Source: Tubiluchus corallicola (Eukaryota; Animalia; Priapulida). From it: DNA of 64,000 nt. The notes under the pieces are model-generated. The model did not search any database. It saw only the letters and a list, made by a program, of their open reading frames with translations, and was not told where the DNA came from. Location of the stretch: assembly GCA_030141605.1 (NCBI GenBank), contig JAQGDQ010000389.1, positions 15,653 through 79,652 of the forward strand, given 5' to 3'. Positions 22,314 through 60,475 of the stretch are shown in pieces. Made by a program: the position numbers and the translations under genes. Every line of letters begins with the position of its first letter. Position 1 is the stretch's first letter.

Positions 22314-22558
22314 GATGAATTACTGCGGATGGCATTCGTAATGTAAACCTATATCACCTACAAACAACAAATATATTTTATCACTGAGAATAAGTGAAAA
22401 TAGTCTTACATGCTAAGCTAAACCAAAAAGCTTCATATCAAGACGTGTTAAAAATCAGAATGAAACTGCAGTAAAAAATGCATTTAACTGTAACAGTCCG
22501 TGATTTTTAGCTCACCTCAACAACCACTAATGTACAGTTAAAGTTTGAAGAAATTTAA

Positions 22559-26700: not shown

Positions 26701-29541
26701 AGTAAGCTTAGCAGACGATAAACGTATACTCTCAGGAAAATTTACTACAAGGTTTCTAGTTGCATAAATTTTTATAACTAATAATGTAAGTTATTATAAC
26801 GATACCTATCCCAAATCCTGATGGCCTTATCTAAAGGCCACATGGTAGTAACCCTAAAATTACCCTACTTATTTCATGCATGCTTAAAATCTACCTGGCA
26901 TCATTGAACAATAAAATAAACGTACGTTGAGTATTACGTCGGCGAAAAGAAGTGCAAAAGCGAAAATTATTAGCAATGTCAGCTAGTTTGTCTACATCCT
27001 AAAGACTTAAAATACAAAATTCAGATACACTGCAATATTTAATTTTAAACAGAACTTAAGATGAAAGACTCGGCCAATCAGCACTATAATGATTCTGATT
27101 ATGATGTTCAATTTTGTGGCTTACATGTTCCAATTATTGTGGACCACGATAATTGCTAAAGAAAAAGATAGACAAAACATTATGTAACAAGTAGTTTAAG
27201 TGGCATAAAGTTATTGACTACTAGTCTACCCGTGTGCTGGTCAGCTCTTGCTGCTTGATCATCCAAGCCAGGGCATGTTCTGTTTGTAACTCTTAGAGGA
27301 CATACGTAAACGTCGGTATGTTCGCATTTGTACTTAGACTAGGATGCACAGTGCAGGCATGTTTTGTTCTAATTTTGTTGAATGCAAACTCGCGAAAAAT
27401 ATCAATAGTGGCGCTGGGAAGAGAATTTAGGCTGTCTGACACCACCTTGTTCCATCTCTCTGTCTCTCTCTTTCTCTTGTCATTTTTGAAACATTAGCAC
27501 TAGACACTGTAAGAGATATAATCTTTTACAACCGGATTTTACTATTCATTTTATGTAATTATGAAAATTCCTGGAAAATTGTTAATTTTGTGCACAGTAT
27601 CATTCTAAAATAATCAAAAAGACGTTACTTTTTACTGTATCAGTAATCTTAAGTCCAAACAACTAGAATAGCAAACAATGCAAAACTGTGAATGACCCAC
27701 TTTATAATACCACATTATTTTATCAATTTTTTTAGCTCTATACGTACGTTAGTTATCCACAATTGAGCTCGTTAAAGCACAAGAAACCCTTCACTTACAT
27801 AAAGCTTAAGAAATTCCTCCTGAAATTTTATACCACTTACATGCTGCCTTTTTGTATGTTAGAGCTGCGTCGGCAATAACGCTGTATAAAGCATGTAAAT
27901 TCAAACTCCCGCGATGACTCCCGCGAATATTGTTAATAATATTGTTGTTTTTAAAAACTATTTTTAATAAAAAGTTTCTAGTGTGAAAATTTAAAATAAA
28001 AAATTCTTAAAATCTTCTTCTTTAATTTGCCATCATGGTAATGTCATTCAGTTAATAATCAGCGTTAATAATCAATAATGAAAGCAACAACTCAGTTATG
28101 TAACTTATTGGAGCTTAAAACATTGAGCTGTATATTTCGACAGGCTTGTTTTTCGTGGTTTTGTAGTTTTACAATTATGCTTATTTTTCTACTGTATTAT
28201 GCTTATAGGATAATTAATTGTGTGCTGTACAGTGTAATGTGTCAATATTATCATTATTTTTGTTCAGCTTTGTGAATATATGACAGTGTGTTATGTGGGC
28301 AAAAAATCAATATTATGCTTTTTTGTACTGAAATACATGCCTATTTTTGTACGCATTATAGTATGATGATTATGTGCTGTACAATGGTCAGTATTATGGT
28401 TATTTTTTGTGCTGCATTATGTTTATAATAAATAAATAAATAAATATAGCACATCACAAGCAAGTAAGAAGTTTCCTGACCATAGGTACATTAAGTACAT
28501 GACATACCTGTAATTAATTTTGGTTATTATGTGGCACTATACATTTAAATACCTACATATTATGTCTATGAAAATAAATTTAAATGTCTCTTGTTATACA
28601 CATACAAATGATGCTACCTTTCACTTGTAATAAGTAAAACTGTTCACGAAAAGAAGTTACAAAACCAGCTTTCTAATTCTTTTGTAAACAAATGTACTTT
28701 TGGTAAAGATTGACAGTGCTCTACTTATCTTCAAGAAGAATGACCTCATTGGAAGAAAAAATGGGTTTTGAAAATAGGAGCAGCAAACCATGAGATGATT
28801 GCGACTTTAAAATAATTTTACTAATTACACAAAGGCAGTTACAGCAGTTTTATTACTAAGTCTTACGTCCATGTTTTTTGCAAACTCTGAACATACTTGT
28901 CTTTGCTTTTAATGAATTTGGCGGCAAATAAAGTTATAAGTCGAGCAGATATTATCATTTTGATGGGTTGAATATTCGAATCTTTCCATTGCGAGTTTTC
29001 TGATATATGTTTTGAATTTTGCTAATTTTTCAGTTTACTTAAAACAGGGATCGCAGGAATGTGCAATGTGCCAGGAATAAACAGGACGTTACAGAGCATT
29101 AAACCTTTTGTCTTCATTTCAAATTTGTGGTAAAATCAAAGCTAACTATGCAGAAATAATTTTGATGATGTTACTTCATTAAGTGAATGTAGTAGTAAAG
29201 GGGTTGGTGAAAGCATCAAGGTTTGCACAGAACTGTCTGGGTTATAGAAAAATTATGACAGGTGGGGACATGAATGGATGCTGTGAGGATGAATGATGTT
29301 TAAACAAGCATTTTGCAAACGATTATCGTTTACCCGCACCAGTAGAGCGGGGCGTAAAACACCACCGAAATCACAGCGCCCACAATGAAGTCTTCGTGCG
29401 AATAAATTGAATTGAATAGAATTGAATTGTGGGAACAAGCAATGTACAATTGAATTGTCCAGCTCCAGGTTTCGCACGCATTATTTATTTATTGGTACAC
29501 CTGAAATAACGTGCTAAAAGTGCATAGTATTTGTTACAAAA

Positions 29542-29686
29542 ATGTTTAATGAAACTAGAAGAGAGGTCGTCGCGCATTCTAAATTGCAAGACGCTTTTCA
29601 AGCCATTCAAGACCACGAGGAAAAGACAAAATTTCATTATGTGGTTAATCAACATCAAAAGCGCTTTAATGATGATGGTGGTATCG
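29542..29686 (+). CDS. CARF-like / MULE-derived gene, exon 1
   Basis: aaaATG...ATCG|gtaaga; MFNETRREVVAHSKLQDAFQAIQDHEEKTKFHYVVNQHQKRFNDDGGI; 145 nt, phase 1, matches exon 2. Confidence 0.7.
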
Positions 29687-29855: not shown

Positions 29856-30634
29856 CGATCCGTTCAAGTCTGACTGGAATCTAAACGTTTTTCAAAATCC
29901 AATCGTTCTGCAACATTTGAGTTTATTATAAACCGACATATCTGTCATGTTTGCCATACTACCACTGATCTTGCTTCCTTACCATACCACGACACCTGTC
30001 CGCTGGGTTTCACCTCCACTTGAGAGACAACTTTAGAGAGATAACATAAGTTTAAAATGCGTGAGAGAAAACGTGTGATAAAATAGGTAACACTTAGTAA
30101 CCATATAAAAGTGTGGTTGCTATCGACTTTTGCAAGAGCACATTGAAATTATGTTCAAATCCAGTAGATGGCTCTTCGTGATTTTGGCTTATCAACAGGA
30201 AAAAACATGAAGCAAAATCACTGCTTCTACGAACTACTTTCGGAGTTTGAAAATACAAGTCTTTAGTAAATTCAATACTAATTTCTAGACAGAAAAATGG
30301 GTATATATAAAGGGGTTATAAAATTGAATTTCTTGTATATTTTCGACATTTTCTTGATAATTTGACGCTAGAATATAAAAGTCCTAATACACTTAGTGTA
30401 AGCATTAATACTAGACCAAAATTAACATTAGACCAAAATTTTGGTGCTGTCTACTTTGAAGCATCAAAATGTAATTTTAACTATACCGACTTATGGATGG
30501 TTTTGGTTTGCAAAGTGCATACATTTTGGTTATTATTACCTATTATTTTGTCCGAAAGATATAATAAACTATATGCATTATGAAAATGTTTTCAGAATTC
30601 TGTAAAACAGACATTCGGGGGCCTATATATATAT

Positions 30635-31099
30635 AAACTGCATATGATATGAAAAACTACTACGACATGATATGAAACTGCATATGATGTGAAAAACTAC
30701 TATGACATGATATGAAACTGCATATGATATGAAAAACTACTATGACATGATATGAAACTGCATATGATGTGAAAAACTACTATGACATGATATGAAACTG
30801 CATATGATATGAAAAACTACTATGACATGATATGAAACTGCATATGATATGAAAAACTACTATGACATGATATGAAACTGCATATATATGATATGAAAAA
30901 CTACTATGACATGATATGAAACTGCATATGATGTGAAAAACTACTATGACATGATATGAAACTGCATATGATGTGAAAAACTACCATGACATGATATGAA
31001 ACTGCATATGATGTGAAAAACTACCATGACATGATATGAAACTGCATATGATGTGAAAAACTACTATGACATGATATGAAACTGCATATGATATGAAAA
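30635..31099. repeat. 40-bp minisatellite, ~11.5 copies, in intron 1 of the CARF-like gene
   Basis: Unit aactgcatatgat(a/g)tgaaaaactactatgacatgatatga. Confidence 0.95.
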
Positions 31100-31161
31100 A
31101 TAAGTAATAATCCGGTGTTGAAAGCTTTGTGAACAACATGTAAGTCTGATTTACATTTCAG

Positions 31162-31343
31162 ATGTACCAAATGGAGTGAAAATTCATTGGCAAATTTCGT
31201 CCCGGAAAGAAAATCGTTTGCCAATTGAATTTGATGGCATTCCTTTTGTCTTCTTGGGCAAGAAAACATATGCTTGCCATCATGGCAGAGACAGAGGACT
31301 GTCAGTGAAGAAGAAATGGAAAAAAGATAAGGACTGGCGTATG
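31162..31343 (+). CDS. CARF-like gene, exon 2
   Basis: tttcag|ATGTA...CGTATG|gtgagg; IEFDGIPFVFLGKKTYACHHGRDR resembles the CARF FDGIPFV...CQYG motif; phase 1 to 0. Confidence 0.85.
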
Positions 31344-31691: not shown

Positions 31692-31802
31692 AGAAAAGAA
31701 AACGTGTTTATAAAGAGTCGGCTTCTGAAACAACCTACAAAAAAGATGGGCTGCCCGGCTTTGATAGAAATTAAGAAGCTCGTTAAATTCCCAGAATTTA
31801 AG
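31692..31802 (+). CDS. CARF-like gene, exon 3
   Basis: ttttcag|AGAAAA...TTTAAG|gtgacc; TKKMGCPALIEIKKLVKFPEFK resembles CARF CPARIYIKKVQKFPEY; 111 nt, phase 0 to 0. Confidence 0.85.
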
Positions 31803-32254
31803 GTGACCGGAATGTGTGTTACTGCAGTATTTCATCTTGCCTAAGGGTAGTAGTTTGCATGGTAGCCTAATCAGAATTGCTGTGAATATTATCTTTCTTT
31901 TCATTGTTGTGAATATTGTCTTTCTTTTCTGGATTAGTAAGAAAATGGGTGAACTTTAACTGAAACTTGCTTTATACATTTGTGTCTAAAATGTGTTTGG
32001 TTTTTTATGAAACCACACAAGACAGCAAGAAATATTTACCGCATAAATATATACAGTAAACTACGTGTACCTCGAACATCTCGGGACCAGAAAATTTGTT
32101 CATGTTATGCGAGAGAATGAGTTAGAAGATGTTCGTAAGAGAACAAGATTGAGTCACTCATCAATGTCGGACAATGCATTAGAAAAACTACAGTCTATGA
32201 AAGTGATAACCCCGAGACTTGAATCAAAATATCAAACAACAATTTTGATGAATA

Positions 32255-33178
32255 CCGTATATACTCGCATATAAGCCGAATTTAGAACTATAAAATACAA
32301 TACTGAAATCAGGGGGTCGACTTATATGCGCATGAAACAAAATGAACACAAGGACAGACACTAATGCCAATTTTCCAGCCACACATTTTCATCGCTATCT
32401 GACTCTTTATTTGGTTGTGTGTCACCGGTGGTGTATTGGAGGGGGATCGTGGGGGATCGCCGTCCACCCACTTTTTTTTTAGAAAAAATTCACATTTCAA
32501 TAAATGTCTGCTTTTTGTATTCATTAGATAAAAAATATTAAAAATGTATACAGGTTTAATATTAAATCTACTTTTTTTCATTTTTTCAAAAAACGGTTTT
32601 AAATAGTGTCAATTTCTTTCAAATTTGTGAATGTAAAATGGTAAGTCTTGAGACTAGCCGTCCACCTACTTTTTATTTAGCAATACACCACTGTGTGTCA
32701 CCAGTTGCGAGCCGTAACCAAGCCGACGTCATCAGCCACGTTTTCTGAACAGACACTCTATAAGTTTGAGACAAAGACGATGAGGGTGGTAGTGACAATG
32801 ATTTTGAAGGTTTCTAATTATTTTTAAGAACACTACGTTAAATTATAAACAGAAATGTTATAATTTTTTGTGAATAAATAGAAAACAAAATATTTTCTTC
32901 TTTATTCATATCAAAATGTATAATTTCTTCTATTTCTTCTAGTATGTAACATAAAAGTAAGCATTTTACATCTTTATAGTAAAAAATTTCTATGAACCAA
33001 AAATACCCAATTAACAAAATGTGACAAAAAGGGATCAATTTTGTTGATTGGGTATGGAGTAAAATTAGACAAGTTGATGGTCGGCTTATATACGGGTTTT
33101 TGCAAAAACTGGCCATTTTAAAGCAGTTTTAAGGGGTCGGCTTATATGCGATGTAGGCTTATATGCGAGTATATACGG
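32255..33178. mobile_element. Tc1/mariner-type MITE (TA TSD)
   Basis: ta|CCGTATATACTCGCATATAAGCC ... GGCTTATATGCGAGTATATACGG|ta, a perfect 23-bp TIR; internal g(g/a)cttatat(g/a)cg repeats. Confidence 0.9.
32426..32693. mobile_element. hAT-type MITE nested in the mariner-type MITE
   Basis: TIR CGGTGGTGTATTG / CAATACACCACTG; perfect 8-bp TSD tgtgtcac at 32418-32425 and 32694-32701. Confidence 0.9.
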
Positions 33179-33388
33179 TAATCAAAAATAGAATGATTGG
33201 TCCACCTCTACTGTAGTCTGAGTAGAATGATCAATAGAATTTGGCAGTAATAATGTTGTGATCTAGTTATTAAATCATGTTCTTTGAGCCATGTTGTGTG
33301 CAGCATTCTGTAAAGGTAACACAAGAAATCTTACTGTATTATATATTTTAACTGCCACACTTATCTTCAACTGCTATTTCTGTTGCAG

Positions 33389-33535
33389 GTTTGTGATACA
33401 TCGAGAGCTGCCAAGAATCAGAAGATTAAAAATTTGAAGGATGCGTTGAAGAGGGATCCTCAACCAAAGATGGATGTAAAGTATATCACCTCAATTCCAG
33501 ACAAAGATGATCACAAGTATCACCATAATGGTGAG
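33389..33535 (+). CDS. CARF-like gene, exon 4
   Basis: gttgcag|GTTTGT...GGTGAG|gtaaa; ...KYITSIPDKDDHKYHHNGE carries the P...HxxH motif; 147 nt, phase 0 to 0. Confidence 0.85.
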
Positions 33536-33646
33536 GTAAAATTATTAGAGTAGAAAAAATCATAACTTTGTCAGAATTGACATTACCAATAAGTGTGTTT
33601 TTGTATTACCCCATTTCACATTGCTTTCTAGTAAATAATCTATTAA

Positions 33647-34195
33647 AGGAAGACCGGACGATTGTTTAGACTCAATCTCATTTTAATTTACTGTGCAAAA
33701 TATACGTTTTCTTGCCTATAAAAGTTAACAATTGTTCCTTATATTTGAATAATTAGCTTAGAAAGTTAATTAATGGCAATGGAACGCAGCTGTTGTTTAT
33801 GTCAGCAACTAACCACAGCTTGTGCAATGGCAGGCATCTTCTCTTGCATGTCAAGTACATTTACATAGGTGTTACAGTACTGTTTAAACGCATGATGTCA
33901 CGAAAATGGGCTTTACATCATATGACGTCATGAAACTAACACTGCAGTTCATGATTAAGGTTATCACGGTACCGCCTTCTATTTGTCGGCCATGCGAATG
34001 TGACAAAAAGACGCCATTGCCAATCTTAGTAGATTCACTGAGCTGCATGTAGCTTTGAAAGTTTGACGAAATTTGACTATCCGAGGTAATTATTATTTAA
34101 TCTAAGTTTTGATTTAAAATAATCTATTGTAGTTTTCAATATTTTAGAGCATTCTTTATTCTGAACTCGTGTTTACACAATCATCCGGTTTTCCT
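33647..34195 (+). mobile_element. Kolobok-like MITE family 1, 549 bp
   Basis: ttaa|AGGAAGACCGGACGATTGT ... ACAATCATCCGGTTTTCCT|ttaa; homologous to 22559-23106. Confidence 0.85.
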
Positions 34196-34349
34196 TTAAA
34201 CTGCAAATTAGTTTGTCTAGTTTAACACTATTGCCTACAGCAGTCTTTAACTGGTTATACATACAATATTTTCATGTATTCACATTATCATACCTGTAAA
34301 TGTGTGTAACTTGTGCAATAAAGATTATATATATTTATATATATATGTA

Positions 34350-34796
34350 TCGGATATAAGGGACACCTCGGGACCAGAAAAAAAACTGTCCTTTATATCC
34401 GAAGTTAAGACAGACTGAGGGGGTATGTAGACCTGTACTTTTACCTATATTTCTATGGATTATTGCTGCACATTCAGTACAAATGGTATGTAGAAAGCTC
34501 CTTCAGTGATTCGAGATGTATGGAAACAGAGCTGTTCGAAGGCCGAGTTTGAGAAAAGTTGAGGTTAAAAATCGATCAATTTTGCTTTGATCATAGGGTC
34601 CTTTATATGTGAGGTAATTTACCTGGGTTTCTGTTACGCGGGACCTGAAGATATTGTCCCTTATAATAATGTCGAAAATCCCTTATATCCGAGTACCTCA
34701 TATACGAAGATTTTTACATAGGAAAAACGTTACGAAAAATCAGGACCGGTGTTGGTGGTCCCGTATAAGCGAGTACCTTATACCCAAGGTTGACTG
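34350..34796. mobile_element. pogo/Tigger-like MITE, left end damaged
   Basis: Ends ggttgaCTG|ta; internal inverted cggatataaggga / tcccttatatccg and gggacc / ggtccc motifs. Confidence 0.55.
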
Positions 34797-35756
34797 TATA
34801 TGCATTTGAAGCTTATCATACTGCCCCTGCTATAATGCCAACTTCTTCTTGTCATAATGCAGAATACATCCAACGTTGCCTATCAACATCCACCAACATA
34901 CCTGCTGTGTCAAATCTATCTTTTTTAAATCAACCACATTGTAATGATAGTAGAAACAATGGCCCTTGTACAAAAAAGCAGCGGTGATATTTAGAGATTT
35001 AAGTATTGTGTAGCAAATGACTGTTGGAAAGTGAATATTGAGGCCTTGAGCAAGCTTGTCACACATGTTTTGAGTGAGACATGAATTGAATAATTATGTT
35101 TCAAAACTGAACGAATGTGAATTAAAGACTGTTAAAGCTGCTATTTGTACTGCAAGGCTTGGTAGCCCCACTCGCTTTATATAACCTTTTGGCATAATTA
35201 AAGTTTTACTAGAATGGCATAACAAATATCAGCAGGCAAAATTCTTGGCTAAAGAATCTTCTGAATCAGGGTCGTTACAAAACCGGAACTGGGTCCGATT
35301 TCCGTCACCGAAATTAGTGGTTTTGGTTTCAGCCAACTTCCGCTAAAAGTGGTCCAGTAAGCAACAAAAACAACACTTGCTTAAAGCCACATTCATAGAG
35401 TTTTTGCCTGAAATGTCAAGCTCAGCTCAGCAAATGCATCGCAGTCATTTGTAATAAATCGATGTCGTTGAATTCAGCTACTTACACATTCATGGAAAAC
35501 CTTCATTGAATTATGTTTGACAAATATTTCGTTCATCAAAAAAACTAAAAATTTTGTTTCTGTGGGAAACCATTACAGTTCTGGTTCTGGCTACCTAGAT
35601 CTCCATAACAGCTTTATTCTGATGCAGTGTTACAATGATAACATAAATTTAGATAAAAAATTGAAATAAACAACTGGTCCGGGTACTGCCTCAGTGATAA
35701 AAAGTGCTGTGCAAACGAAGTAACAAAAGTTTATAAGCAAATCTTGCACTTTGTAT

Positions 35757-38700
35757 TGTGTGTAATCATGTTTATTTGGTACTTGTTTCTAGATAGAGGG
35801 CCTCAGTGAGCCTATCGATCCATTAATTAAGGAAAAAGTGCTAGAACTGCTAGCCAGTGGTGTGCAATCATGTTCATTTGGTACTTGTTTCCAGATAGAG
35901 GGCCGCAGTGAGCCTGTGGATCCATTAATTAAGGAAAAAGTGCTAGAACTGCTAGCCAGTGGTGTGTAATCATGTTCATTTGGTACTTGTTTCCAGATAG
36001 AAGGCCGCAGTGAGCCTATGGATCCATTAATTAAGGAAAAAGTGCTAGAACTGCTAGCCAGTGGTGTGTAATCATGTTCATTTGGTACTTGTTTCCAGGT
36101 AGAGGGCCGCAGTGAGCCTGTCGATCCATTAATTAAGGAAAAAGTGCTAGAACTGCTAGCCAGTGACGTGTAATCATGTTCATTTGGTACTTGTTTCCAG
36201 ATAGAGGGCCGCAGGGAGCCTGTCGATCCATTAATTAAGGAAAAAGTGTATGAACTGCTAGCCAGTGGTGTGTAATCATGTTCATTTGGTACTTGTTTCC
36301 AGATAGAGGGCCGCAGGGAGCCTGTCGATCCATTAATTAAGGAAAAAGTGCTAGAACTGCTAGCCAGTGGTGTGTAATCATGTTCATTTGGTACTTGTTT
36401 CCAGATAGAGGGCCGCAGGGAGCCTGTCGATCCATTAATTAAGGAAAAAGTGTATGAACTGCTAGCCAGTGGTGTGTAATCATGTTCATTTGGTACTTGT
36501 TTCCAGATAGAGGGCCACAGTGAGCCTATCGATCCATTAATTAATGAAAAAGTGCTAGAACTGCTAGCTAGTGGTGTGTAATCATGTTCATTTGGTACTT
36601 GTATCCAGATAGAGGGCCACAGTGAGCCTGTCGATCCATTAATTAAGGAAAAAGTGCTAGAACTGCTAGCCAGTGGTGTGTAATCATGTTCATTTGGTAC
36701 TTGTTTCCAGATAGAGGGCCGCAGTGAGCCTATGGATCCATTAATTAAGAAAAAAGTGTTACAACTGCTAGCCAGTGGTGTGTAATCATGTTCATTTGGT
36801 ATTTGTTTCCAGATAGAGGGCCACAGTGAGCCTATCGATCCATTAGTTAAGGAAAAAGTGTTAGAACTGCTAGCCAGTGGTGTGTAATCATGTTCATTTG
36901 GTCTTTGTTTCCAGATAGAGGGCCGCAGTGAGCCTATGGATCCATTAATTAATGAAAAAGTGCTAGAACTGCTAGCCAGTGACGTGTAATCATGTTCATT
37001 TGGTACATGTTTCCAGATAGAGGGCCACAGTGAGCCTGTCGATCCATTAATTAAGGAAAAAGTGCTAGAACTGCTAGCCAGTGGTGTGTAATCATGTTCA
37101 TTTGGTACTTGTTTCCAGATAGAGGGCTGCAGTGAGCCTGTCAATCCATTAATTAAGGAAAAAGTGCTAGAACTGCTAGCCAGTGGTGTGTAATCATGTT
37201 CATTTGGTACTTGTTTCCAGGTAGAGGGCCTCAGTGAGCCTGTCGATCCATTAATTAAGGAAAAAGTGCTAGAACTGCTAGCCAGTGGTGTGTAATCATG
37301 TTCATTTTGGTACTTGTTTCCAGATAGAGGGCAACAGTGAGCCTATCCAGTCCCATTAATTAAGAAAAAAGTGCTAGAACTGCTAGCCAGTGACGTGTAA
37401 TCATGTTCATTTGGTACTTGTTTCCAGATAGAGGGCTGCAGTGAGCCTGTCAATCCATTAATTAAGGAAAAAGTGCTAGAACTGCTAGCCAGTGACGTGT
37501 AATCATGTTCATTTGGTACTTGTTTCCAGATAGAGGGCCACAGTGAGCCTATCGATCCATTAATTAAGGAAAAAGTGTTAGAACTGCTAGCCAGTGGTGT
37601 GTAATCATGTTCATTTGGTACTTGTTTCCAGATAGAGGGCCGCAGTGAGCCTATCGATCCATTAATTAAGGAAAAAGTGTTAGAACTGCTAGCCAGTGGT
37701 GTGTAATCATGTTCATTTGGTACTTGTTTCCAGATAGAGGGCCGCAGTGAGCCTGTCGATCCATTAATTAAGGAAAAAGTGTTTGAACTGCTAGTCAGTT
37801 GTGTGTAATCATGTTCATTTGGTACTTGTTTCCAGATAGAGGGCCGCAGTGAGCCTATCGATCCATTAATTAAGGAAAAAGTGCTAGAACTGCTAGCCAG
37901 TGGTGTGTAATCATGTTCATTTGGTCTTTGTTTCCAGATAGAGGGCCGCAGTGAGCCTATGGATCCATTAATTAATGAAAAAGTGCTAGAACTGCTAGCC
38001 AGTGACGTGTAATCATGTTCATTTGGTACATGTTTCCAGATAGAGGGCCACAGTGAGCCTGTCGATCCATTAATTAAGGAAAAAGTGCTAGAACTGCTAG
38101 CCAGTGGTGTGTAATCATGTTCATTTGGTACTTGTTTCCAGATAGAGGGCTGCAGTGAGCCTGTCAATCCATTAATTAAGGAAAAAGTGCTAGAACTGCT
38201 AGCCAGTGGTGTGTAATCATGTTCATTTGGTACTTGTTTCCAGGTAGAGGGCCTCAGTGAGCCTGTCGATCCATTAATTAAGGAAAAAGTGCTAGAACTG
38301 CTAGCCAGTGGTGTGTAATCATGTTCATTTGGTACTTGTTTCCAGATAGAGGGCCGCAGTGAGCCTATGGATCCATTAATTAAGAAAAAAGTGCTAGAAC
38401 TGCTAGCCAGTGACGTGTAATCATGTTCATTTGGTACTTGTTTCCAGATAGAGGGCTGCAGTGAGCCTGTCAATCCATTAATTAAGGAAAAAGTGTTTGA
38501 AGTGCTAGCCAGTGGTGTGTAATCATGTTCATTTGGTCTTTGTTTCCAGATAGAGGGCCGCAGTGAGCCTATCGATCCATTAATTAAGAAAAAAGTGTAT
38601 GAACTGCTAGCCAGTGACGTGTAATCATGTTCATTTGGTACTTGTTTCCAGATAGAGGGCCACAGTGAGCCTATCGATCCATTAATTAAGAAAAAAGTGT

Positions 38701-40559
38701 TAGAACTGCTAGCCAGTGGTGTGTAATCATGTTCATTTGGTCTTTGTTTCCAGATAGAGGGCCGCAGTGAGCCTATCGATCCATTAATTAAGAAAAAAGT
38801 GTATGAACTGCTAGCCAGTGGTGTGTAATCATGTTCATTTGGTACTTGTTTTCAGATAGAAGGCCGCAGGGAGCCTGTCGATCCATTAATTAAGGAAAAA
38901 GTGCTAGAACTGCTAGCCAGTGGTGTGTAATCATGTTCATTTGGTACTTGTTTCCAGATAGAGGGCCGCAGGGAGCCTGTCGATCCATTAATTAAGGAAA
39001 AAGTGCTAGAACTGCTAGCCAGTGGTGTGTAATCATGTTCATTTGGTACTTGTTTCCAGATAGAGGGCCACAGTGAGCCTATCGATCCATTAATTAAGGA
39101 AAAAGTGCTAGAACTGCTAGCCAGTGGTGTGTAATCATGTTCATTTGGTACTTGTTTCCAGATAGAGGGCCGCAGTGAGCCTATGGATCCATTAGTTAAG
39201 GAAAAAGTGCTAGAACTGCTAGCCAGTGGTGTGTAATCATGTTCATTTGGTACTTGTTTCCAGATAGAGAGCCGCAGTGAGCCTGTCGATCCATTAATTA
39301 AGGAAAAAGTGCTAGAACTGCTAGCCAGTGGTGTGTAATCATGTTCATTTGGTACTTGTTTCCAGATAGAGGGCCGCAGTGAGCCTATCGATCCATTAAT
39401 TAAGGAAAAAGTGCTAGAACTGCTAGCCAGTGACGTGTAATCATGTTCATTTGGTACTTGTTTCCAGATAGAGGGCCGCAGGGAGCCTGTCGATCCATTA
39501 ATTAAGGAAAAAGTGCTAGAACTGCTAGCCAGTGGTGTGTAATCATGTTCGTTTGGTACTTGTTTCCAGATAGAGGGCCACAGTGAGCCTGTCGATCCAT
39601 TAATTAAGGAAAAAGTGCTAGAACTGCTAACCAGTGGTGTGTAATCATGTTCATTTGGTACTTGTTTCCAGATAGAGGGCCACAGTGAGCCTGTCGATCC
39701 ATTAATTAAGGAAAAAGTGCTAGAACTGCTAACCAGTGGTGTGTAATCATGTTCATTTGGTACTTGTTTCCAGATAGAGGGCCGCAGTGAGCCTGTCGAT
39801 CCATTAATTAAGGAAAAAGTGCTAGAACTGCTAACCAGTGGTGTGTAATCATGTTCATTTGGTACTTGTTTCCAGATAGAGGGCCACAGTGAGCCTGTCG
39901 ATCCATTAATTAAGGAAAAAGTGTTAGAACTGCTAACCAGTGGTGTGTAATCATGTTCATTTGGTACTTGTTTCCAGATAGAGGGCCGCAGTGAGCCTAT
40001 GGATCCATTAATTAAGGAAAAAGTGCTAGAACTGCTAGCCAGTGGTGTGTAATCATGTTCATTTGGTACTTGTTTCCAGGTAGAGGGCCTCAGTGAGCCT
40101 GTGGATCCATTAATTAAGGAAAAAGTGCTAGAACTGCTAGCCAGTGGTGTGTAATCATGTTCATTTGGTACTTGTTTCCAGATAGAGGGCCGCAGTGAGC
40201 CTATCGATCCATTAATTAAGGAAAAAGTGCTAGAACTGCTAGCCAGTGACGTGTAATCATGTTCATTTGGTACTTGTTTCCAGATAGAGGGCCACAGTGA
40301 GCCTGTCGATCCATTAATTAAGGAAAAAGTGCTAGAACTGCTAGCCAGTGGTGTGTAATCATGTTCATTTGGTACTTGTTTCCAGATAGAGGGCCGCAGG
40401 GAGCCTATTGATCCATTAATTAATGAAAAAGTGTGTGAACTGCTAGCCAGTGGTGTGTAATCATGTTCATTTGGTACTTGTTTTCAGATAGAGGGCCACA
40501 GTGAGCCTATTGATCCATTAATTAATGAAAAAGTGTGTGAACTGCTAGCCAGTGGTGTG
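35757..40559 (+). repeat. 102-bp tandem array, 47 units, each made of an intron 3' end, an AG acceptor and the start of CARF-like exon 5
   Basis: First exon start 35793, last 40488; difference 4695 = 46x102+3. Unit taatcatgttcatttggtacttgtttccag|ATAGAGGGCCGCAGTGAGCCTGTCGATCCATTAATTAAGGAAAAAGTGCTAGAACTGCTAGCCAGTGGTGTG. Confidence 0.97.
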
Positions 40560-40651
40560 ACAAACAGGAGGAACTTAGAAGCATGTGTTAAAGAATATGT
40601 GATTAACACGTTATTCTGTGGACGAGATCCACCAGAACAAAGTAGGCGAAG
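40488..40651 (+). CDS. CARF-like gene, exon 5 (last array unit plus unique continuation)
   Basis: ttttcag|ATA GAG...CGA AG|gtaggt; IEGHSEPIDPLINEKVCELLASGVTNRRNLEACVKEYVINTLFCGRDPPEQSRR resembles CARF P.V..KI.ELV..G....V...L..FV..ELF....P; phase 0 to 2. Confidence 0.85.
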
Positions 40652-41890
40652 GTAGGTTAGTTCACCAGTCAGTATTCAGTCATTAAACTGAAAATTGTTT
40701 ATCACCTTCAAAACCGCACCATTCAAAATAGGTCTTATTAGACCTTTGACTTTTCTGCTTCTGTATGTGCACAGAGACATGCCTAGGTGATTACAAATTA
40801 GGTACTGGTTTATTTAGCAGAACCTGGCTATCACGCTATTTGTTTAAACATTTATAAGCGATTTGATTGGATGAAATTAAGAAAAAGACGACCTTTTCTG
40901 GCAATCCAGCTTAACCTATTGAGTACCTTAGTCTGGTGTACACTTACGTGATCGTACACACTATTTTATTGATTGCCTTTTTGCTAATGCCCAATAGAAC
41001 TGTCTGCTGTACAGAGCGCCAGAAAAAACAGCCGATCAGTCAAGGACAAATTAAGGTAGCTTCATCTTTTAACAGGAATTTCTCTCTAAAAATAGAGCAG
41101 ACTTGAGGCCAACGTGTGTCAGTGTTGTGTCTGGATGGTTGAAATTTTCTAGCATTAGCTGCTTTCACACAAGTGATACTGTACATTATTACTGTGCAAA
41201 ACTGCTGTTACTGAAAGCTTCAATTTTTTCGTCAGAAATTGATTTTTAATTCTAAGGTAATCTAAGGTAATCATATGTGTTTTATATCTAATTTTGCATA
41301 AAAGCCCACTGTGTGAAGTCTATAAAAATTATCAAATAGAATGTAATCATTTCTTATTGAGAGCTGTTTTTCATAAAACCATGTACCAAACACTTACAAG
41401 TCTGAAGGAGTTAAATCACCAATGAGACTAAAAAGGATAAAATAAAGAATGAAGATTTTGTATTTACTTCATGGTGCACATCTTGTTACCTAAGAAACCA
41501 ACCTGTAAAATTTCAGCTTTGTAACTTTAGCATTCGAGCTAAACACTGGTCATTCGAGCTAAACACTGGTCATTTGAGCTAAAAACTGGTCACACAGATG
41601 CACTCATATGCATCTATGCATGAACAAACACACAAATGAACACAAGCATGCATGCACACACAAACCCATGCATGTACATGCACACAGACAGACACACACA
41701 CACACACCCTCACACACATGTACACGCACTCACACACACGCACGTACACACACACTCACCCACCCTCACACACATGTACATGCACTCTCACACACACTCA
41801 CACAGCCTGTTTCCTTTATTAATCAATGGTATAGATGGCATATTATGTCAAAGCACTATATTTACTTAGTAAAATTGTTTATATTTGTAG

Positions 41891-42374
41891 GTACTTTCCA
41901 CGTGCAAAGGACTTTTCTAATTTAATTACAAAGTATAAACATAGACGGCGCTTCTCTAAAATTGATGACCTGATTTCAATCCAGAGGGAGTACCAAGAGA
42001 TGTCTGATAGTGACGCGATGGAAGATGTGTCTGATGGGACAGTAAACTGTGCAATTAGTGAATTACCACCGAGGCGTAGCCAGTTTAAAAGCAGCCTGAT
42101 ATGGGCAAGGTCCACTTTGAAACAGGTAATTGACTTGACTTACAAATTCAGTAAAGATGCTGACCCAGGTCAGTTTAGAAATTGGACAGCTTTGGTGGAC
42201 GAATGTCTCGTGGAAGCTACAAAACTGGTGAAGAAACACGATGGTTTGACCTTAGAGTCTGAAAGTGCTGGTCCTAGTGCAAGGAAGAAAGCAAGGCTTG
42301 ACCAGAGCTCACCTGACCCAGTGTCCAAGCGTCCAGCTTCAGGAAGAGTTGGAGATAGAGCCAAGACGTTATAA
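41891..42374 (+). CDS. CARF-like gene, exon 6 (terminal)
   Basis: tttgtag|G TAC TTT CCA; phase 2 gives RYFPRAKDFSNLITKYK (CARF FFPT..DI.NHI), then FSKIDD, an acidic linker, a helical LKQVIDLTY...GLTLE segment and SGRVGDRAKTL*. Confidence 0.8.
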
Positions 42375-42597
42375 AGATTCTACAAGCCTCCTCTTTCCAG
42401 GCACAGTAAAGCTACAAATGTTTAGGAAGTCTGAAAGTGCTGGTCTTAGTGCAAGGAAGAAAGCAAGGCTTGACCACAGCTCACCTGAGCCAGTGTCCAA
42501 GCGTCCAGCTTCAGGAACAGTTGGAGATAGAGCCAAGACGTTAGAACGATTCTGCAGCCTCCTCGTTCCAAGTGTAGTAAAGCTACAAATGTTTAGG
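42257..42597 (+). repeat. ~171-bp tandem duplication spanning the stop codon of the CARF-like gene
   Basis: gtctgaaagtgctggtc..gtgcaaggaagaaagcaaggcttgacca...gtaaagctacaaatgtttagg occurs twice. Confidence 0.9.
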
Positions 42598-42789
42598 TGC
42601 CATTCCCCGACTCAGTTGCCTAAACTGGGGCCACAAAAATTCCTGATTGAAATCTTATTTTCAGAAAAATGTTGCGTGTCTTTAGTAATTTTGTTGTTAG
42701 TGTTAAAAACACAAATGTTTGTATGTTTCTTCAGACTTTATTTTTACAAAACAATGACGGGTAACATGGGATTTTTTTCCGTTTGTAAC

Positions 42790-43170
42790 TTGTCAGTGGC
42801 TTCTTTGAAAGGCTTGTCACTGGCTTCTTTTAAGGGCTTGTCACTGGCTTCTTTGAATGGCTTGTCACAGGCTTTGAAAGGCTTGTCACTGGCTTCTTTT
42901 AAGGGCTTGTCACTGGCATCTTTGAAAGGCTTGTCACTGGCTTCTTTGAAAGACTTGTCACTGGCTTCTTTGAAAGGCTTGTCACTGGCTTCTTTGAAAG
43001 GCTTGTCACTGGCTTCTTTGAATGGCTTGTCACTGGCTTCTTTGAAAGACATGTCACTGGCTTCTTTTAAGGGCTTGTCACTGGCGTCTTTGAAAGGTTT
43101 GTCACTGGCTTCTTTGAATGGCTTGTCACTGGCTTCTTTGAATGGCTTGTCACTGGCTTCTTTGAAAGAC
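42790..43170. repeat. 24-bp minisatellite, ~16 copies
   Basis: Unit ggcttgtcactggcttctttgaaa. Confidence 0.95.
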
Positions 43171-44576
43171 TAGAATCTGGCTCCTAGATCAGTTGTCCAC
43201 CTTATCAAGTGGCACCTTCCCCTCTGTCGCGCAGGTTACAAACACAGAAGTATTATTAGGTGACATCATCCAATTTTCCTAGTGAAACCATTGTAACATA
43301 GATGCAGTACACCATGGTAACTGCGGTCATCTCATTTGGTGGAGCATGAGCAGCTGAGGAGCTTATGAAGTTACAATGACGAACAGCCAGTTAAGAGGGA
43401 CATAATAGAAACCCAATGAGGTTACAAGAAAACAAATTAAACCATCAATTAATGATAAAACTGTAGTTATTGCTACGTGTACATTGTTAGTGCTGTATAC
43501 TCTCTCGTAAGTGTAATATTTTGACGTATTGCATTATTAAGAACATGATGTTTTTGTGTGATGTACTTTCTAGTTTGTGATGTTATTATACGTTTAGTTT
43601 TGTGTTGAAATGTATATTTTAATGTCGTTATGTTATTGTATGTATTATTAATTTTGCTAAGTATAGTATTATGCTACAGAGATTAGGCCTACAGTGTTTT
43701 TTACACTCGCATACTCAGGCAATAGTTTATGGCACTTTGCAAGATAGAAGCACTGAAAGATACTTGCCATACTACTCGTAAATAATTGCTATTATTGTTA
43801 ATTTATTTTGTTAATTCTATGCACGAAATCAACTCAAATATGGAAGAAAACTTTTCTTCAATAAATGTGATGTTTTAAAATTTGTAGAGCTATAAATGTT
43901 TGTGGTGTACTAGTGCATTGTGTTTTGTGCTGTGTATTGACCCTCACTAAGATTCACCAAAAATGTAAGTTCAGCGTTGCTCTCTGATAAAAGTTTGTTT
44001 TAACAACAATCTTTAACTTGATGAAAAACGAGTTGCACTAAAAAGAACAATGATTTTTGTTGTTCTTAAAAAACCTTGTCGAAAAATGATAAAAAATTAA
44101 CCTATAATTTTTTTATTTTAAGACATAATGCTAAATTCTTTATATCACATCATGCACAATCAACTCATGGACAATAATACCACTAAATTTTACATTGAAT
44201 TAAACTTTAAATTTTAATAAGAAAATCAAACTCATGAAATTTAATTTAACAAAAAAAAGAAAACTAGCATCAATAAATCTGTCAGATATATTTATATATG
44301 AATATTTATAGATGCCAAGTGCATTATCTTTAACACTATTTTACAAAGCACAAAATCTTATAGAATGTTTGATAAGCATGTAATGAAAATGATTTTTCCC
44401 TATTAATCGTACTTGAGAAAAAAGTATCATTGTTCATACAAAACTTACAAAATTTACTTTATAAGAACTGCTTAACAAAGCCTAAGATGTTGTACCAGCC
44501 AATGGCAGGGTAGATAAGTCTAACCCTGCTGAACCCATTTAAAAATTTTGTTTGAGATTAAATACTGGGAAAAATC

Positions 44577-44719
44577 TTAGCTAACTATGTAGCCATTGAA
44601 TGTGCTGGCATAACTACCTGTATAAATGGAGGCACCAGTGTAGTATGTGACATAAACTTCATCTGTTGTTTCGAGATGAAGAATAACAGCCTTTGTTATG
44701 TCAAGCCAGAGATCACCAC
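44577..44719 (-). CDS. Ig3-C1q gene, last exon (C1q C-terminal part)
   Basis: ttgttgcag|GTGGTGAT...AGC TAA; AVILHLETTDEVYV...YASTFNGYIVS* fits the C1q L.L...D.V.V...STF.G motif. Confidence 0.9.
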
Positions 44720-47700
44720 CTGCAACAAAATAAAATTATTTTTAAGTACAACTTGTGTAAGAGCGAATACTAGTCACAAGGATGCATCAGTTTATCTTAA
44801 TGTCAGGATTATTGTTAACATCACAAGCCGAGAATTTAAAAAATTTAGATACCAAACTTGAAAAATAGGAAATACTAAAAAGTTATATGCAGGATGGATT
44901 TGAACTAGACCTAGCTGGTTAACTAAATTAGCACTTAAAAGTTAAAGCACTCAAACTAGACAGATTTATTTTAACTAATTTGAATATTTTTGGTTTAATT
45001 TGGTTAATTATTGTTGTATTTCGTTAAACCAAGTTTTTCAACCTGCAGTATTAAATATTAATGTTTTGTATATTGTAATGCAGACAGAATGATGATGAGT
45101 GGCTGTCATGCCATAGTTGTGACATAGTGACTGTTTTCTAATTTTGATTGCCTCAATTTTGCAGGCTATGTAAAAACTTTGGAGGACCAACTCAATGACG
45201 TACATCATTTTAAGAGGCCTTTACGTAACATGCAGATGCAGTTGCATTTTGGTGGAAGTGGAACAGACAAAATCGGTTTATATTATTTCCAAAGCATCAT
45301 TTATGGAGCCTGCGGACCTACTATTATTTTTCTCCAGCGATTCCCTATTACTTTTTTCCACAGTTCTGCAAGTAGAAAATGCATCAACATATGCATCCGA
45401 TTTCTTAGAATGCCAAGTTAGACGAGACCCCTGAACTCGAACCCAGGAATAAAATGGCACAAGACTTTGTTGAAAAGACAGAATTACAGTCTCTTAACAT
45501 CAATAGATGGTGAAGCTGAGGTGCAATTGGACACCTTTGGTTATTCTCCTCCACCTTACAGACCACATCGTACTTGACATGACAGAGATGAGGAAACAAC
45601 ATGGAGTTTCTTTCCTGCCATCCCTCTGCCCGATGCATCATTACTGGTCTGCATAAAGAATTATTACGACACAGGCATTTCGTCATTAAATTTTGCTAAA
45701 TGTGTTAATTTGTGACCAACTTCACACGTTTGACACCTCATGCGTGAGCACAGTGGCAAATTTAAAATTCGAGTTTTTATCTAAAACTTGCTTAAGTTTT
45801 AGTACAACACACTAAGTATTTTACAGAAGGATTGTACTTGAATTTTCGTTATGTCCCCAGAGTAATCAACAAGGCAAATGATATTTGATTGGCTGCTAGG
45901 TAGTCTTTCCCAAAGTTCCCCTCTTGCCCAAAAACGGCTAAAATAAATTGGTCCTGCTAGAGTTGACTCGAAAATGAGGGAACCAAATACAAATTTGCTA
46001 AAGTCTCTGCCATCTCCTGTCTGGGCTGACCAATTTGAGAGAAATCAGCAGACAATGTAACCTGAGCAATCATTTACCTGCATTCACCTACCTGGTATTT
46101 CAACCAATGACAACCCCAATGAATCATTTTTCCTCTCAACAGTCAACTTACCGAGCTCTGTCCACTTTTCAAATGTAAATTTTGGGCATGGCTTCTTATT
46201 TCAGTAAACTTTCTACTTGTAATTTAGCTTACACCTGTAAAATGCACCCACTATTTTATTGCATTAGGAATTCTGAGTATAAATTTTTTCAGAAACATAA
46301 CGAGAAGTTTCAGTGAAGAAACCTGTTTTTGGCAACCTGACTTGTGGCAGACATTTTATCCTCTGCTGAACGATAGTCTTACACAGTTGGAAATTGAAAC
46401 TTGCATGCTGGCAAACATTCCACTGAAGTCTCACCATTTAGTTGTAGCACTGGAATCGTTAGCTGTTGCCTAAGGCTGAACAATTAAGCCTACAGATGGG
46501 ACTGGTTGCAGCCCGTATTTTTCTGTATTAACTTAAAATGCTCTTGCCCCATAAATAAATAAATAAATCTCTCTTTACAGCACTTTAGGTTTGCAAAATC
46601 GTAATTAAAGGTACAGCAATAAAACCTGCCAATAAAGTAAAACTTAAAGGAATCAATATTTCATCTAAAGTCAACCGACGAAAAGAAAATCTTTAACTCT
46701 ACTAAATAATTTTGTAGCCTCGTGCACAGACTAATGATATTTAAAATTATGCAACAAAAACTGTTATCTTCCTTTTGCGCTGCATTTGAAAATCTTGTTG
46801 TCACGTTGTGGAAGACATTATTCAACTTTCCTTTATTGTGTTAACTCCATTCAAAGTGGGAGGATTGATTTTAAAGGGAGGGGGGCGGAGCTTTTGCCCT
46901 ATTATGTGTTTAAACTTTCATTCACTAAAGGACACAGAACATGTTACGTGAATGTTATTTTAAAGACTCTTCAAAATAAAAACATCTATAAATCGAAATT
47001 CAATCATCTTACCTGAACGAAATTCACAAATCCTACCTTGTGATTGACTAAAATTTAAATACTCACCTATTTCACCTGTGCAAAATCTATAAAAACAAGT
47101 GCCGCATTCTTATTCCTTGAGTTCAGGGGTTACTGGTATTAGTTTGAGCACCAAACAGGACAAGCCTGATCCCTTCATGATCCTGTCTCCTAACTGTTTG
47201 TGTGCCAATGTGAGGTAACCCCTCAAGGGTTGATTCCCTTTTTATGTTTTGTGTCTAGCCAGCTAGTTGTTCATTCCAATTACGAAAATTCTTTCTTACA
47301 TTAACATATTAATTTTACAAAATCACTAAATTAGTCAAGATTATGGGCTTATGCCACTCAATGAATGCTAATTAATGTCTCCCAGGCATTTGGTTCACTG
47401 ATCTCGTTTCAGGATGAGGTACTCAAACCATGGCGTCTCACCCACCCATAGCTCTGGTTCAAACCATCCAGGAGCTATTACAACTACCCTGGTGGCTAGT
47501 ATCGACAACAGAACAGTATTTATAGCTATTTTATGTGTTTCACTTATGCATTTTTGATTAAGTATAACAATACTTCTTTTACAAATTATCATTACCAAAC
47601 GAATTAAAATGAAGAAAACATAATTATGTTAATGAATAATTAAACTAGAATTGCAAATAAGGTGAGTGAGCTTTAAACAATCAATAAGTATTTAACAAAT

Positions 47701-47886
47701 GGGATTGACAGTCACCAACTTGTGAATGAATGAACAAATGAACGAATGAAATTTAATGAATATGACATTATTATAGAAAATTAAGTTATGTAAAAAATTG
47801 TTTACTTAAAACTCTTGAGTAATGAATTTGTTAGCATAGATGTAGACACGGTGCCTCATTGCAAATAGTTTACTAAACAAGCTTAC

Positions 47887-48015
47887 CTGCATGATAGGGA
47901 TATGCAACATTATTTCCATTACGTTTAAGAACGGCCACAGTACCTGCTGAGCTTCTCTTCGCCAGTAAATTCAGTTCAAAGTAGTAAGTGCCTGATATAG
48001 GCGCCGTGAATTTTC
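47887..48015 (-). CDS. Ig3-C1q gene, C1q middle exon
   Basis: ctttacag|GAAAATTC...CATGCAG|gtaagc; GKFTAPISGTYYF is the C1q signature; 129 nt, phase 1-1. Confidence 0.92.
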
Positions 48016-50156: not shown

Positions 50157-51235
50157 CTGAAATAAAAATATTACTTGTCATCATTATCATCACGAGCTGG
50201 TCAATATTATTATGTCATCACAGTCAAAGATGTTTCTACAATTATCACCATCCTTTCCATTCTCCAGGGTAATTTGGTACCAACAACATGGATTAGCCAC
50301 AATCTATTCAGTGCATCAGTCATTGTGAACTCATGTCAATACGTTCTTAAACATCCTTGTGCCATCAATGGCGACTCAACATGAAGGGCTGAACTTTGTA
50401 ACCCAGGATGGTTTGCCCTAAAAACAGGACAGGAATAGGAGGAGGCATAAACAAAACTACAACTAAGAAAGAATTAAGACTACATGAAATTGGCCAATGA
50501 GAAACAAGATCAGTGAATTATTGTGGATATTGAAATGTTTTTTTAATTTACAGCTGACATGTTAGCATTAATGCTATTCTGCTACGTCTTGCTCTATTTG
50601 TTTGTATTTACGGGATCAGGATGAGCAAATGGGTTAATAAAGTCCTCTGTTGTTCTATGAACAGTTTCGCTATGTCGAGTTGTTCACAACACCCCTCAGG
50701 GACTCAAGCCAGCAATTCCGGATATTGCTAGATTTGTTCATAACATGCATTGAAAGTGAAGCACAAAGGGGAAAGTAAAACATATTAGCCAACCAGGTCA
50801 GAGGCTTAGAGACCGTTTGCAGGAAGTAAGGCAACAATGTTTGTTGCACTAGAGAGAATTAAAAATGAATTTGCAAAAATTAAAATATAAATTAAAGTAA
50901 TCAGATTGTAAGCTAAGAAAAGGGTTAACACAAACTTTTGAGTTGTAGTTTTTTAGTGAATATTTTCTGGAAGCATTACTGTGTAATTGAGGTACCCCCA
51001 CGAGACCTTCAAAACAACAAGGCTAGTGACACTAAAACTTTTATAGATAACAAAGTGATGTGAAAATAAGAATAATAAAAATTGTCTCAAGGAAGGATTA
51101 CTCATTTGGATATTGATGATATGTGAAAGATCAGTGCACTGGCTTCATTTAAAATCACAGGTAAATATTAAAAAAATCTACATGTTCAGTGGTGCTAAAA
51201 GTATCAGATTCTATATAGAGAAACGTAAAACTTAC

Positions 51236-59907: not shown

Positions 59908-60475
<568 letters not shown>

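Follow-up and report, generated by a model that had tools for sequence, protein, structure and literature searches.

A 47-unit tandem repeat of a splice acceptor and exon start in a CARF-type gene of the priapulid Tubiluchus corallicola

In a 64,000-nt stretch of Tubiluchus corallicola DNA (referred to here as the window), the boundary between intron 4 and exon 5 of a CARF/ALS2CR8-type gene is present as 47 copies arranged head-to-tail. Each unit consists of the 30-nt end of intron 4 with its acceptor AG, followed by the first 72 nt of exon 5. We think it probable that this exon-5 acceptor minisatellite originated at a GTGTG motif, grew by unequal exchange and is removed together with intron 4 through the choice of unit 47 as acceptor. 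Apart from its large size, the array is probably an ordinary case of the ‘mirage’ repeats known from lancelets. The features are listed in Table 1.

Table 1. Exons of the host gene and features of the array in the window
Feature	Position	Strand	Basis
Coding exon 1 (from ATG)	29542..29686	+	Open frame, GT donor
Exon 2, ALS2CR8 domain	31162..31343	+	PF15299 E 9.6e-9; tblastn with P0002; conserved Cys (YACHHG)
Exon 3, ALS2CR8 domain	31692..31802	+	PF15299 E 6.7e-8; conserved Cys (MGCPA)
Exon 4	33389..33535	+	Phase 0 end after conserved H-x-x-H; donor GAG/GTAAAA
Tandem array, 47 x 102 bp	35758..40559	+	GTGTG at both edges
Unit 1, exon part	35793..35966	+	CAA read-through into unit 2, 58 codons, 253-aa product
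Four AG-GT units	36099..40081	+	CAG/GTAGAG, acceptor directly followed by donor-like site
Unit 16	37324..37427	+	Frameshift after codon 8, 206-aa product
Unit 47 plus remainder, complete exon 5, 164 nt	40488..40651	+	Donor AAG/GTAGGT
Exon 6	41891..42374	+	End of N-terminal region fused in frame to MULE transposase C-terminal tail
Duplication across coding end, 2 x 172 bp	42256..42597	+	TAA in copy 1 is GAA in copy 2

TRF reported the array (35758-40559) with a period of 102, 47.0 copies, 94% matches and a score of 8470. The 47 exon starts run from 35793 to 40488 and are 102 nt apart in 44 of 46 intervals, the other two being 103 and 104. The acceptor AG is kept in all 47 units, and the units are in frame with exon 4. 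The original prediction had described the array as an amplified intron-4/exon-5 boundary with units of about 30 nt of intron and 24 codons, GTGTG microhomology at both ends and a TAA some 28-30 nt before each AG. The TRF result, the in-frame exon starts and the Pfam and homologue alignments of exon 5 agree with this description; GTGTG lies at 35758-35762 and again at 40555-40559, and the TAA begins 30 nt upstream of the exon start of the unit. When exon 4 was joined in silico to each of the 47 units in turn, the full 410-aa product was obtained with unit 47 only, the sole unit completing the open reading frame, as had been proposed. Truncation at about 219 aa, also proposed, holds for 44 of the 47 units (219 aa); the expected read-through of unit 1 was confirmed, while the frameshift of unit 16 had been missed. 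The four CAG/GTAGAG units are units 4, 15, 25 and 43 (exon starts 36099, 37221, 38244 and 40080). Over the array the minus strand holds open frames of 517, 502 and 543 aa; we do not take these as coding, since the period is a multiple of 3 and the single frame scanned against Pfam gave no passing stretch. Such arrays can mislead gene predictors, the minus strand here staying open for >500 codons. We also considered the 3 x 101-bp repeat at 10041-10344 as a second mirage but set it aside, an exon not being evident there.

The host gene has six exons and 410 codons. Exons 2, 3, 4 and 5 match PF15299 colinearly at profile positions 9-45, 59-88, 93-138 and 167-215, with exons 4 and 5 taken alone below the curated cut-off. 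The conserved C, C, H, H motifs are intact at residues 85-90, 128-132 and 186-191. These two observations place the gene in the CARF/ALS2CR8 domain family, in accord with the CARF-like identity first suggested. Exon 1 has a weak match to the N-terminus of Lingula P0002 (E 0.012). Failure of homologues to align over exon 5 had been named beforehand as a refuting outcome; instead, homologues cover this exon over its full length (P0001, 62%; Lingula P0002, 58%); its limits also agree with short homologous ORFs. A full HMMER search gave seven matches, from which P0003, P0004 and P0007 were dropped as chance matches to repetitive proteins. Word-index searches with exons 5 and 2 found nothing, and metagenome scans with a protein pattern and the unit motif gave 0 loci. 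Judging from the fold of the homologue P0121, exon 5 is predicted to encode most of a three-helix HTH-like domain; in the P0121 model, the part encoded by the array unit includes helix 198-209, and the conserved C, C, H, H precede the array. P0121 had no match among PDB sequences and none by Foldseek at E <= 0.001, and VIA-align gave middling structural matches (best Z 6.6).

Exon 6 extends the homology into a transposase. By blastp, Lingula P0008 is matched at residues 8-277 and 712-841, the host gene jumping in frame from residue 277 to 712. On this comparison the gene derives from a MULE transposase and lacks the DDE and SWIM parts, and the transposase origin first proposed is upheld. Among CARF/ALS2CR8-type MULE transposases (PF15299 + PF10551 + PF04434), Lingula anatina LOC106161284 is ∼52% identical in the N-terminal 270 residues and 35% identical in the C-terminal tail, whereas the window protein lacks the ∼435 residues that hold DDE and SWIM. 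The DDE domain (PF10551) that marks an autonomous Mutator-like element is absent from the host gene, and tblastn with P0002 residues 278-574 gave no match at E below 0.5 within the 64-kb window. A comparison of 27000-29541 with 42371-48000 for terminal inverted repeats gave no inverted match >17 nt; the ends may be elsewhere or decayed. The P0027/P0121 cluster (eight members) is also DDE-less, with a layout like that of the window protein. In a tree it groups with the window protein and Lingula at 100/99, and as sister to the window protein at only 92/45. A link between CARF and MULE was not found in the literature searched; PMC1702500 contains neither ‘calcium’ nor ‘ALS2CR8’.

The variation among units provides no sign of selection on the spare copies, since both the synonymous share and the variable columns match neutrality. 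In the exon parts of the 45 non-terminal copies, 7 of 26 variants are synonymous against a chance expectation of 25% (p 0.82), and variable columns make up 9/30 of the intron part and 23/72 of the exon part (p 1.0). Per-site diversity is lower in the intronic part (2.5%) than in the exonic part (6.6%). The TAAT element is nearly invariant and AG-destroying variants are absent among the 47 units, but ∼68% of all columns in the unit do not vary either, and conservation of the AG is thus expected by chance. Residues that are invariant in three homologous exons are altered in 13 of the 47 units. The array contains 38 distinct sequences among 46 units, with a mean divergence of 5.4% and a 10-unit block duplication; units 12-15 are identical to units 22-25. 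Units 46 and 47 share private variants and differ from the consensus at 7-8 positions; the inner units 12, 22, 28 and 30 are equally divergent. Unit 47 has changes that look derived, one being a Cys at a position held by Leu in the array consensus, in Lingula and in P0121.

The array was also found among six public sequencing runs, none of them labelled as RNA. Contigs of run X1 carry the head-to-tail joint from 35859 to 35760, with a summed array depth 0.68 of that of a 47-unit simulation (single-copy depth 185). A second sample, X3, has at least two units, and one of its contigs spans the unit 46/47 junction; its terminal variants differ, and its depth allows roughly 19-41 units, the contig also spanning a high-copy repeat. 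For X2 the estimate reaches 0.29 of that from the 47-unit simulation. The contigs of these runs are collapsed short pieces, none of which crosses the whole array, so summed depth is not a copy number. This collapse and the low X2 value would suit an assembly artefact, or an array far shorter in the real genome. We regard that as highly improbable, given the distinct units, their divergence and the block duplication; the joint in X1 and the two or more units in X3 make an artefact unlikely. X1 has no depth on exon 4, and X6, which we guess to be RNA, has none on exons 2-4 or unit 1; the filter omits records, and these gaps prove nothing.

We scored donors as matches out of nine to the U1-pairing consensus, which is a crude measure. 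Between 33540 and 40660, GT sites scoring >=7/9 occur at 34086, 34614, 40652 and 40656, and none lies inside units 1-46. The strongest donor match of the array region is 164 nt past the acceptor of unit 47; the other acceptors are 266 to 4859 nt from the exon-5 donor. The pyrimidine share is equal in the acceptors of units 1, 3, 46 and 47, and sequence strength therefore does not single out unit 47. Mutually exclusive exons of the Dscam type are whole exons with their own donor and an open frame, and the present units, which contain 72 of the 164 bases of exon 5 and run into a stop, are not of that type. In recursive (ratchet-point) splicing, AG/GT sites act as zero-length exons, and a motif of this type is present in 4 of the 47 units.

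In our preferred reading, slippage at the 5-bp GTGTG microhomology would have started the array, and unequal exchange in blocks, to which the identity of units 12-15 and 22-25 points, would have enlarged it. By exon definition, the only strong donor match of the array region would pair with the acceptor 164 nt upstream; the spliceosome would thus pick unit 47, units 1-46 would leave as part of intron 4, and any leak to upstream units could be cleared by nonsense-mediated decay (NMD). Selection of unit 47 is supported by its being the only unit that completes the ORF and by the lack of a strong donor in units 1-46. From this analysis the spare units are likely to be spliced out, and with exon definition the array is likely to be a near-neutral passenger rather than a switch. 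In the available part of PMC9225289, splice sites nearest across the exon are favoured where flanking introns are long; upstream alternative 3′ sites are preferred overall, this preference being ‘significantly reduced’ in long-intron exons. The upstream preference speaks against the exon-definition reading, as does GTG/GTGTGT in 35 of the 46 upstream units, which scores five matches plus a wobble, like real donors 2 and 3, and could, going by the letters, define a 67-nt frameshifting exon. The lower diversity of the intronic part and the stop at 42372, which seemingly trims ∼17 homologous residues, also sit poorly with this reading.

The gene may instead be a decaying non-autonomous Mutator derivative, unexpressed or unneeded, in which the array went unopposed or helped to finish the gene and acceptor choice is inconsequential. 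We consider this possible but doubtful. It would account for the deletion of DDE and SWIM relative to Lingula P0008, the derived-looking changes of unit 47, the apparently premature stop (TAA at 42372-42374, past which Lingula homology seems to extend ∼17 residues) and the 172-bp duplication over the coding end. Further copies of the gene are also present: one contig holds a variant of exon 2 that differs at 11 of 189 bases and has a depth of 685 versus about 150-200 for single-copy contigs, and a variant of exon 5 was seen as well; 5 of the 14 changes listed for these copies are synonymous, not clearly above neutral. However, the 410-codon frame is open and all ten splice dinucleotides are intact, despite repeats and high-copy insertions in introns 1, 3, 4 and 5; the suggestion that the array is how the gene died is accordingly not favoured. 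Of 1500 neutral simulation runs at half the mean divergence (2.7%), 3.7% kept frame and splice sites intact, and 17% did so with one hit allowed (0.04-0.17), a value that depends on assumed age and is 0.30-0.65 at 1%. The intact C, C, H, H and the existence of the DDE-less P0027/P0121 cluster elsewhere also argue against decay.

If upstream acceptors instead took a sizeable share, copy number could act as a dosage rheostat, lowering the full-length product via NMD or yielding the 219-aa product, in which the zinc-finger-like domain would be followed by just the first helix of the HTH-like domain. Transcription reaches the acceptor of unit 1 before any other in the array, 4.7 kb ahead of unit 47, the real donors of the host gene are weak by our score, and every AG survives. 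In the available part of PMC5954066, ABCA7 VNTR length shifts exon skipping and expression. On the other hand, the AGs would be conserved by chance, the spare exon parts are neutral and altered at otherwise invariant residues, and published mirages and CBS 844ins68, in the accessible text, splice normally. We judge the rheostat unlikely; on precedent, effective competition from the 46 upstream acceptors, with silencing or tuning of the gene as its result, is likewise unlikely. Also unlikely is a copy-number dial on a domesticated DDE-less gene, acting through decay or the 219-aa zinc-finger-only form, in which the four AG/GT units serve as recursive steps to unit 47.

Repeats of splice sites are known from other genes, and the claim that this type of array was undescribed does not stand. 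In the available parts of PMC3087553 and PMC3902484, lancelet mirage minisatellites are repeats of exon-intron boundaries in Adh3, globins (BflGb6 and BflGb9), troponin C and PGBD5, with units of 10-160 bp, many retaining splice signals; normal splicing is reported for Adh3, globin and troponin C. The present array, with its boundary-spanning head-to-tail unit and an AG in 47/47 copies, fits this description. As in the acceptor-type BflGb6, the intron 3′ end and exon 5′ part are repeated, and PGBD5, like the present host gene, is transposase-derived; the difference lies in 47 units versus 3-6 in BflGb6 and 2-7 in PGBD5, on the figures in those parts. The human CBS c.844_845ins68 is likewise an acceptor duplication, but with only two copies and in mammalian splicing. 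It repeats the last 52 bases of the intron together with the first 16 of the exon. Of the two acceptors that result, the downstream one is used and the upstream copy is removed by splicing; the variant is benign and common (PMC7490669, available part; the 68-bp duplication is also covered in PMC2630376). The human F7 IVS7 37-bp VNTR and the ABCA7 intron 18 VNTR resemble the present array in that every unit repeats a splice site, but on the donor rather than the acceptor side. In F7 the first copy wins by 5′-to-3′ scanning and spare sites are mostly silent (PMC1557585, in part); such scanning would favour unit 1, counting against the choice of unit 47. For ABCA7 (25-bp units, alleles up to 9711 bp), unit retention is rare and length alters exon 19 skipping and expression (PMC5954066, in part). 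A literature search for named human acceptor VNTRs found none, and an exon-boundary array was not found in the available portion of PMC10078293.

The array stands out by its number of units, with 47 exceeding the 3-6 of acceptor-type mirages in the published text available, although the ABCA7 donor VNTR reaches 9711 bp; the kind itself is known. If our preferred reading is true, a known class gains one large case, and splicing would be tolerant of dozens of intact decoy acceptors. For the array to have greater importance, expression would have to be shown to depend on allele length. In practice the locus offers a natural reporter, in which unit variants would let ordinary RNA-seq count the choice among 47 near-identical acceptors. 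Such counts are relevant to whether invertebrate acceptors are chosen by scanning or by exon definition, and the 38 distinct units would let the locus serve as a natural test, across 47 acceptors, of first-come against exon-definition choice.

Tandem Repeats Finder reported a single array at 35758–40559 (period 102, 47.0 copies, 94% matches), and a script located 47 exon starts in it, the first at 35793 and the last at 40488. Each unit consists of 30 intron-end bases, with TAAT at the start and YAG at the end, followed by 72 exon bases. When exon 4 was joined to each unit in silico, 44 of the 47 units gave a product of 219 aa, unit 1 gave 253 aa and unit 47 gave 410 aa. The original prediction of 47 copies of the intron 4/exon 5 boundary, with GTGTG at both array ends, was borne out except at unit 16, where joining causes a frameshift and gives 206 aa. 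The array is a real feature and was correctly described. On the minus strand, 35789–40483 has stop-to-stop open frames of 517, 502 and 543 codons and is callable as a gene; these long frames are a by-product of the 102-bp period.

The CARF-like gene comprises six coding exons with GT-AG introns, and its 410-codon frame is open via unit 47. Exons 2–5 match PF15299 (ALS2CR8) colinearly (four of seven scanned pieces; two exceed the curated cut-off). A 172-bp duplication in two copies (42256–42597) overlies the 3′ end of the coding region. Copy 1 carries the TAA at 42372; copy 2 has the sense codon GAA there and has lost one base further downstream.

Coding exons of the CARF-like gene, in window positions
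Feature	Position	Strand	Basis
Coding exon 1	29542–29686	+	open frame, GT-AG introns
Coding exon 2	31162–31343	+	PF15299 match
Coding exon 3	31692–31802	+	PF15299 match
Coding exon 4	33389–33535	+	PF15299 match
Coding exon 5 (from unit 47)	40488–40651	+	PF15299 match
Coding exon 6	41891–42374	+	open frame, GT-AG introns

With exon 5 as the query, full HMMER searching returned seven matches, four of them credible. The homologue P0002 (Lingula anatina LOC106161284), used as a query, retrieved 113 proteins, mostly with PF15299 and PF10551 (MULE transposase). The predicted window protein aligns to Lingula P0008 over residues 8–277 (52%) and then 712–841 (35%); an in-frame gap of ∼435 residues thus takes out the DDE and SWIM parts. 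The eight proteins of the P0027/P0121 cluster share this layout without DDE but have a longer linker; the cluster is possibly a domesticated gene common to the window's organism too. These eight sit on contigs of 1–4.6 kb. A tree of 22 N-terminal regions placed the window protein, P0121 and Lingula in one clade (support 100/99); the sister pairing of the window protein with P0121 is weak (92/45), and loss of the catalytic domain may be shared or separate. Inverted-repeat searches found no element ends around the gene. In the predicted P0121 model (mean pLDDT 73), three helices at 198–261 show middling similarity to homeodomain and transposase HTH domains (best Z 6.6, rmsd 3.2, 70 aligned), and residues 1–189 resemble AFT2 (Z 4.7, rmsd 3.1, 76 aligned); these scores may reflect merely a common arrangement. 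The array unit would correspond to the first of the three predicted helices.

Six public sequencing runs were listed, none of them as RNA, and contigs of five were compared with two stretches flanking the array. Run X1 yielded long contig pieces with 0–1 differences at a depth of ∼150–200; it may be the source sample of the assembly, and its support is therefore not independent. The head-to-tail unit joint (35859 to 35760) is present in its contigs, and the depth summed over the unit is 0.68 of the value simulated for 47 units, with 0.29 for X2 from the same sample. From another sample and study, X3 gave a 563-base contig over 40400–40943 with 10 differences that spans the joint between units 46 and 47. 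The contig's depth (61.5 versus ∼7) allows roughly 19–41 units, but the contig also covers a high-copy repeat. An exon-2 variant in X1 (depth 685, 11 differences in 189 bases), an exon-5 variant in X2 and two exon-5 relatives in X5 (83–85%) indicate that the gene has near copies.

The window region is generally rich in tandem repeats. Intron 1 carries a minisatellite (30631–31100, 40 bp × 11.7), and others lie at 23442–24045 (32 bp × 19), 42789–43168 (24 bp × 16) and 4001–4977 (81-bp family). An element in intron 3 (32249–33184) is high-copy and bounded by 29-nt terminal inverted repeats. A 557-bp dispersed repeat at 33643–34199 (intron 4) and 22555–23110, 86% alike, is covered very deeply in each of the four runs compared, with more pieces at 24504–24675. 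On the minus strand, immunoglobulin-domain gene exons (I-set, C2-set matches; 51200–55420) are directed toward the CARF-like gene, and candidate exons of another gene, rich in proline and glutamine, lie near the left window end (1042–1390 and 3580–3752). A 700-bp direct duplication (57791–58493 and 61015–61657, 81% alike) flanks a 560-bp CT microsatellite (59913–60475).

Within the array, the 46 indel-free units include 38 distinct sequences, with a mean divergence of 5.4%, and units 12–15 are identical to units 22–25, which points to block duplication. Synonymous changes account for 7 of 26 derived exon-part alleles in the 45 non-terminal copies, a chance-like share (p 0.82), and variable columns are about as frequent among the 30 intron-part columns (9) as among the 72 exon-part columns (23; p 1.0). 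The lower per-site diversity of the intron part (2.5% versus 6.6%) and the retention of AG in every unit count against the reading that we favor; AG retention is, however, unsurprising since about two thirds of columns are invariant.

In neutral simulations at 2.7% divergence, frame and splice sites survived in 3.7% of 1500 runs, or 17% with one hit tolerated; at 1% divergence the values were 30% and 65%. The TAA at 42372 is likely one disabling hit. Lingula likeness seems to extend ∼17 residues beyond it, and this apparent trimming counts toward a dead or dispensable transposon derivative, a reading that we consider unlikely. Among the rows listed, 5 of 14 paralogue changes were synonymous. 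Taken together, these results tilt modestly toward the gene having been maintained intact during array expansion.

Donor sites were scored by a crude count of matches to the U1-pairing consensus. Four sites within 33540–40660 reached at least 7 of 9 matches: 34086, 34614, 40652 and 40656. Of these, 40652 is the true donor and lies downstream of unit 47 by 164 bases, of unit 46 by 266 and of unit 45 by 368; unit 47 being nearest, exon definition would pair its acceptor with this donor, and the array would leave the transcript as part of intron 4. Cross-exon proximity of splice sites is supported for long introns, but upstream preference is only reduced at 3′ sites, according to PMC9225289. Counting against clean splicing, 35 upstream units contain GTG/GTGTGT (slash, splice position), with a score similar to those of real donors 2 and 3, and units 4, 15, 25 and 43 read CAG/GTAGAG. 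Splicing at GTG/GTGTGT would produce an exon of 67 bases that shifts the frame (222 aa in the single route tried). All decoy routes through the array meet early stops well 5′ of the last junction. Transcripts with such stops are decay substrates, as the decoy products are thus predicted to be. That the array acts as a copy-number rheostat seems improbable to us, more so than a dead or dispensable transposon derivative.

Tandem repeats across exon-intron boundaries have been termed 'mirages', and the idea that this kind of array is undescribed is not supported, since the acceptor type is already published (PMC3087553). The BflGb6 mirage is of acceptor type like the array, with 3 and 6 units of 150–160 bp as against 47 units, and Adh3 and globin RT-PCR data suggest that mirages leave splicing undisturbed (PMC3087553). 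Aberrant mRNA is likewise described as absent for the Adh and troponin C mirages, and lancelet PGBD5, a domesticated transposase, has a mirage inside a transposase-derived gene, as here (PMC3902484). CBS 844ins68 resembles the array in duplicating an intron end and exon start (52 and 16 bases), the upstream copy being excised (PMC7490669), whereas the VNTRs of F7 IVS7 (PMC1557585) and ABCA7, where length alters splicing (PMC5954066), are on the donor side. No published 47-unit acceptor array was found in the literature searched, which consisted of main texts, largely of non-subscription papers. The 47-unit array is a large new case of an already described kind, and we favor, as the probable reading, an acceptor mirage that is removed with intron 4.
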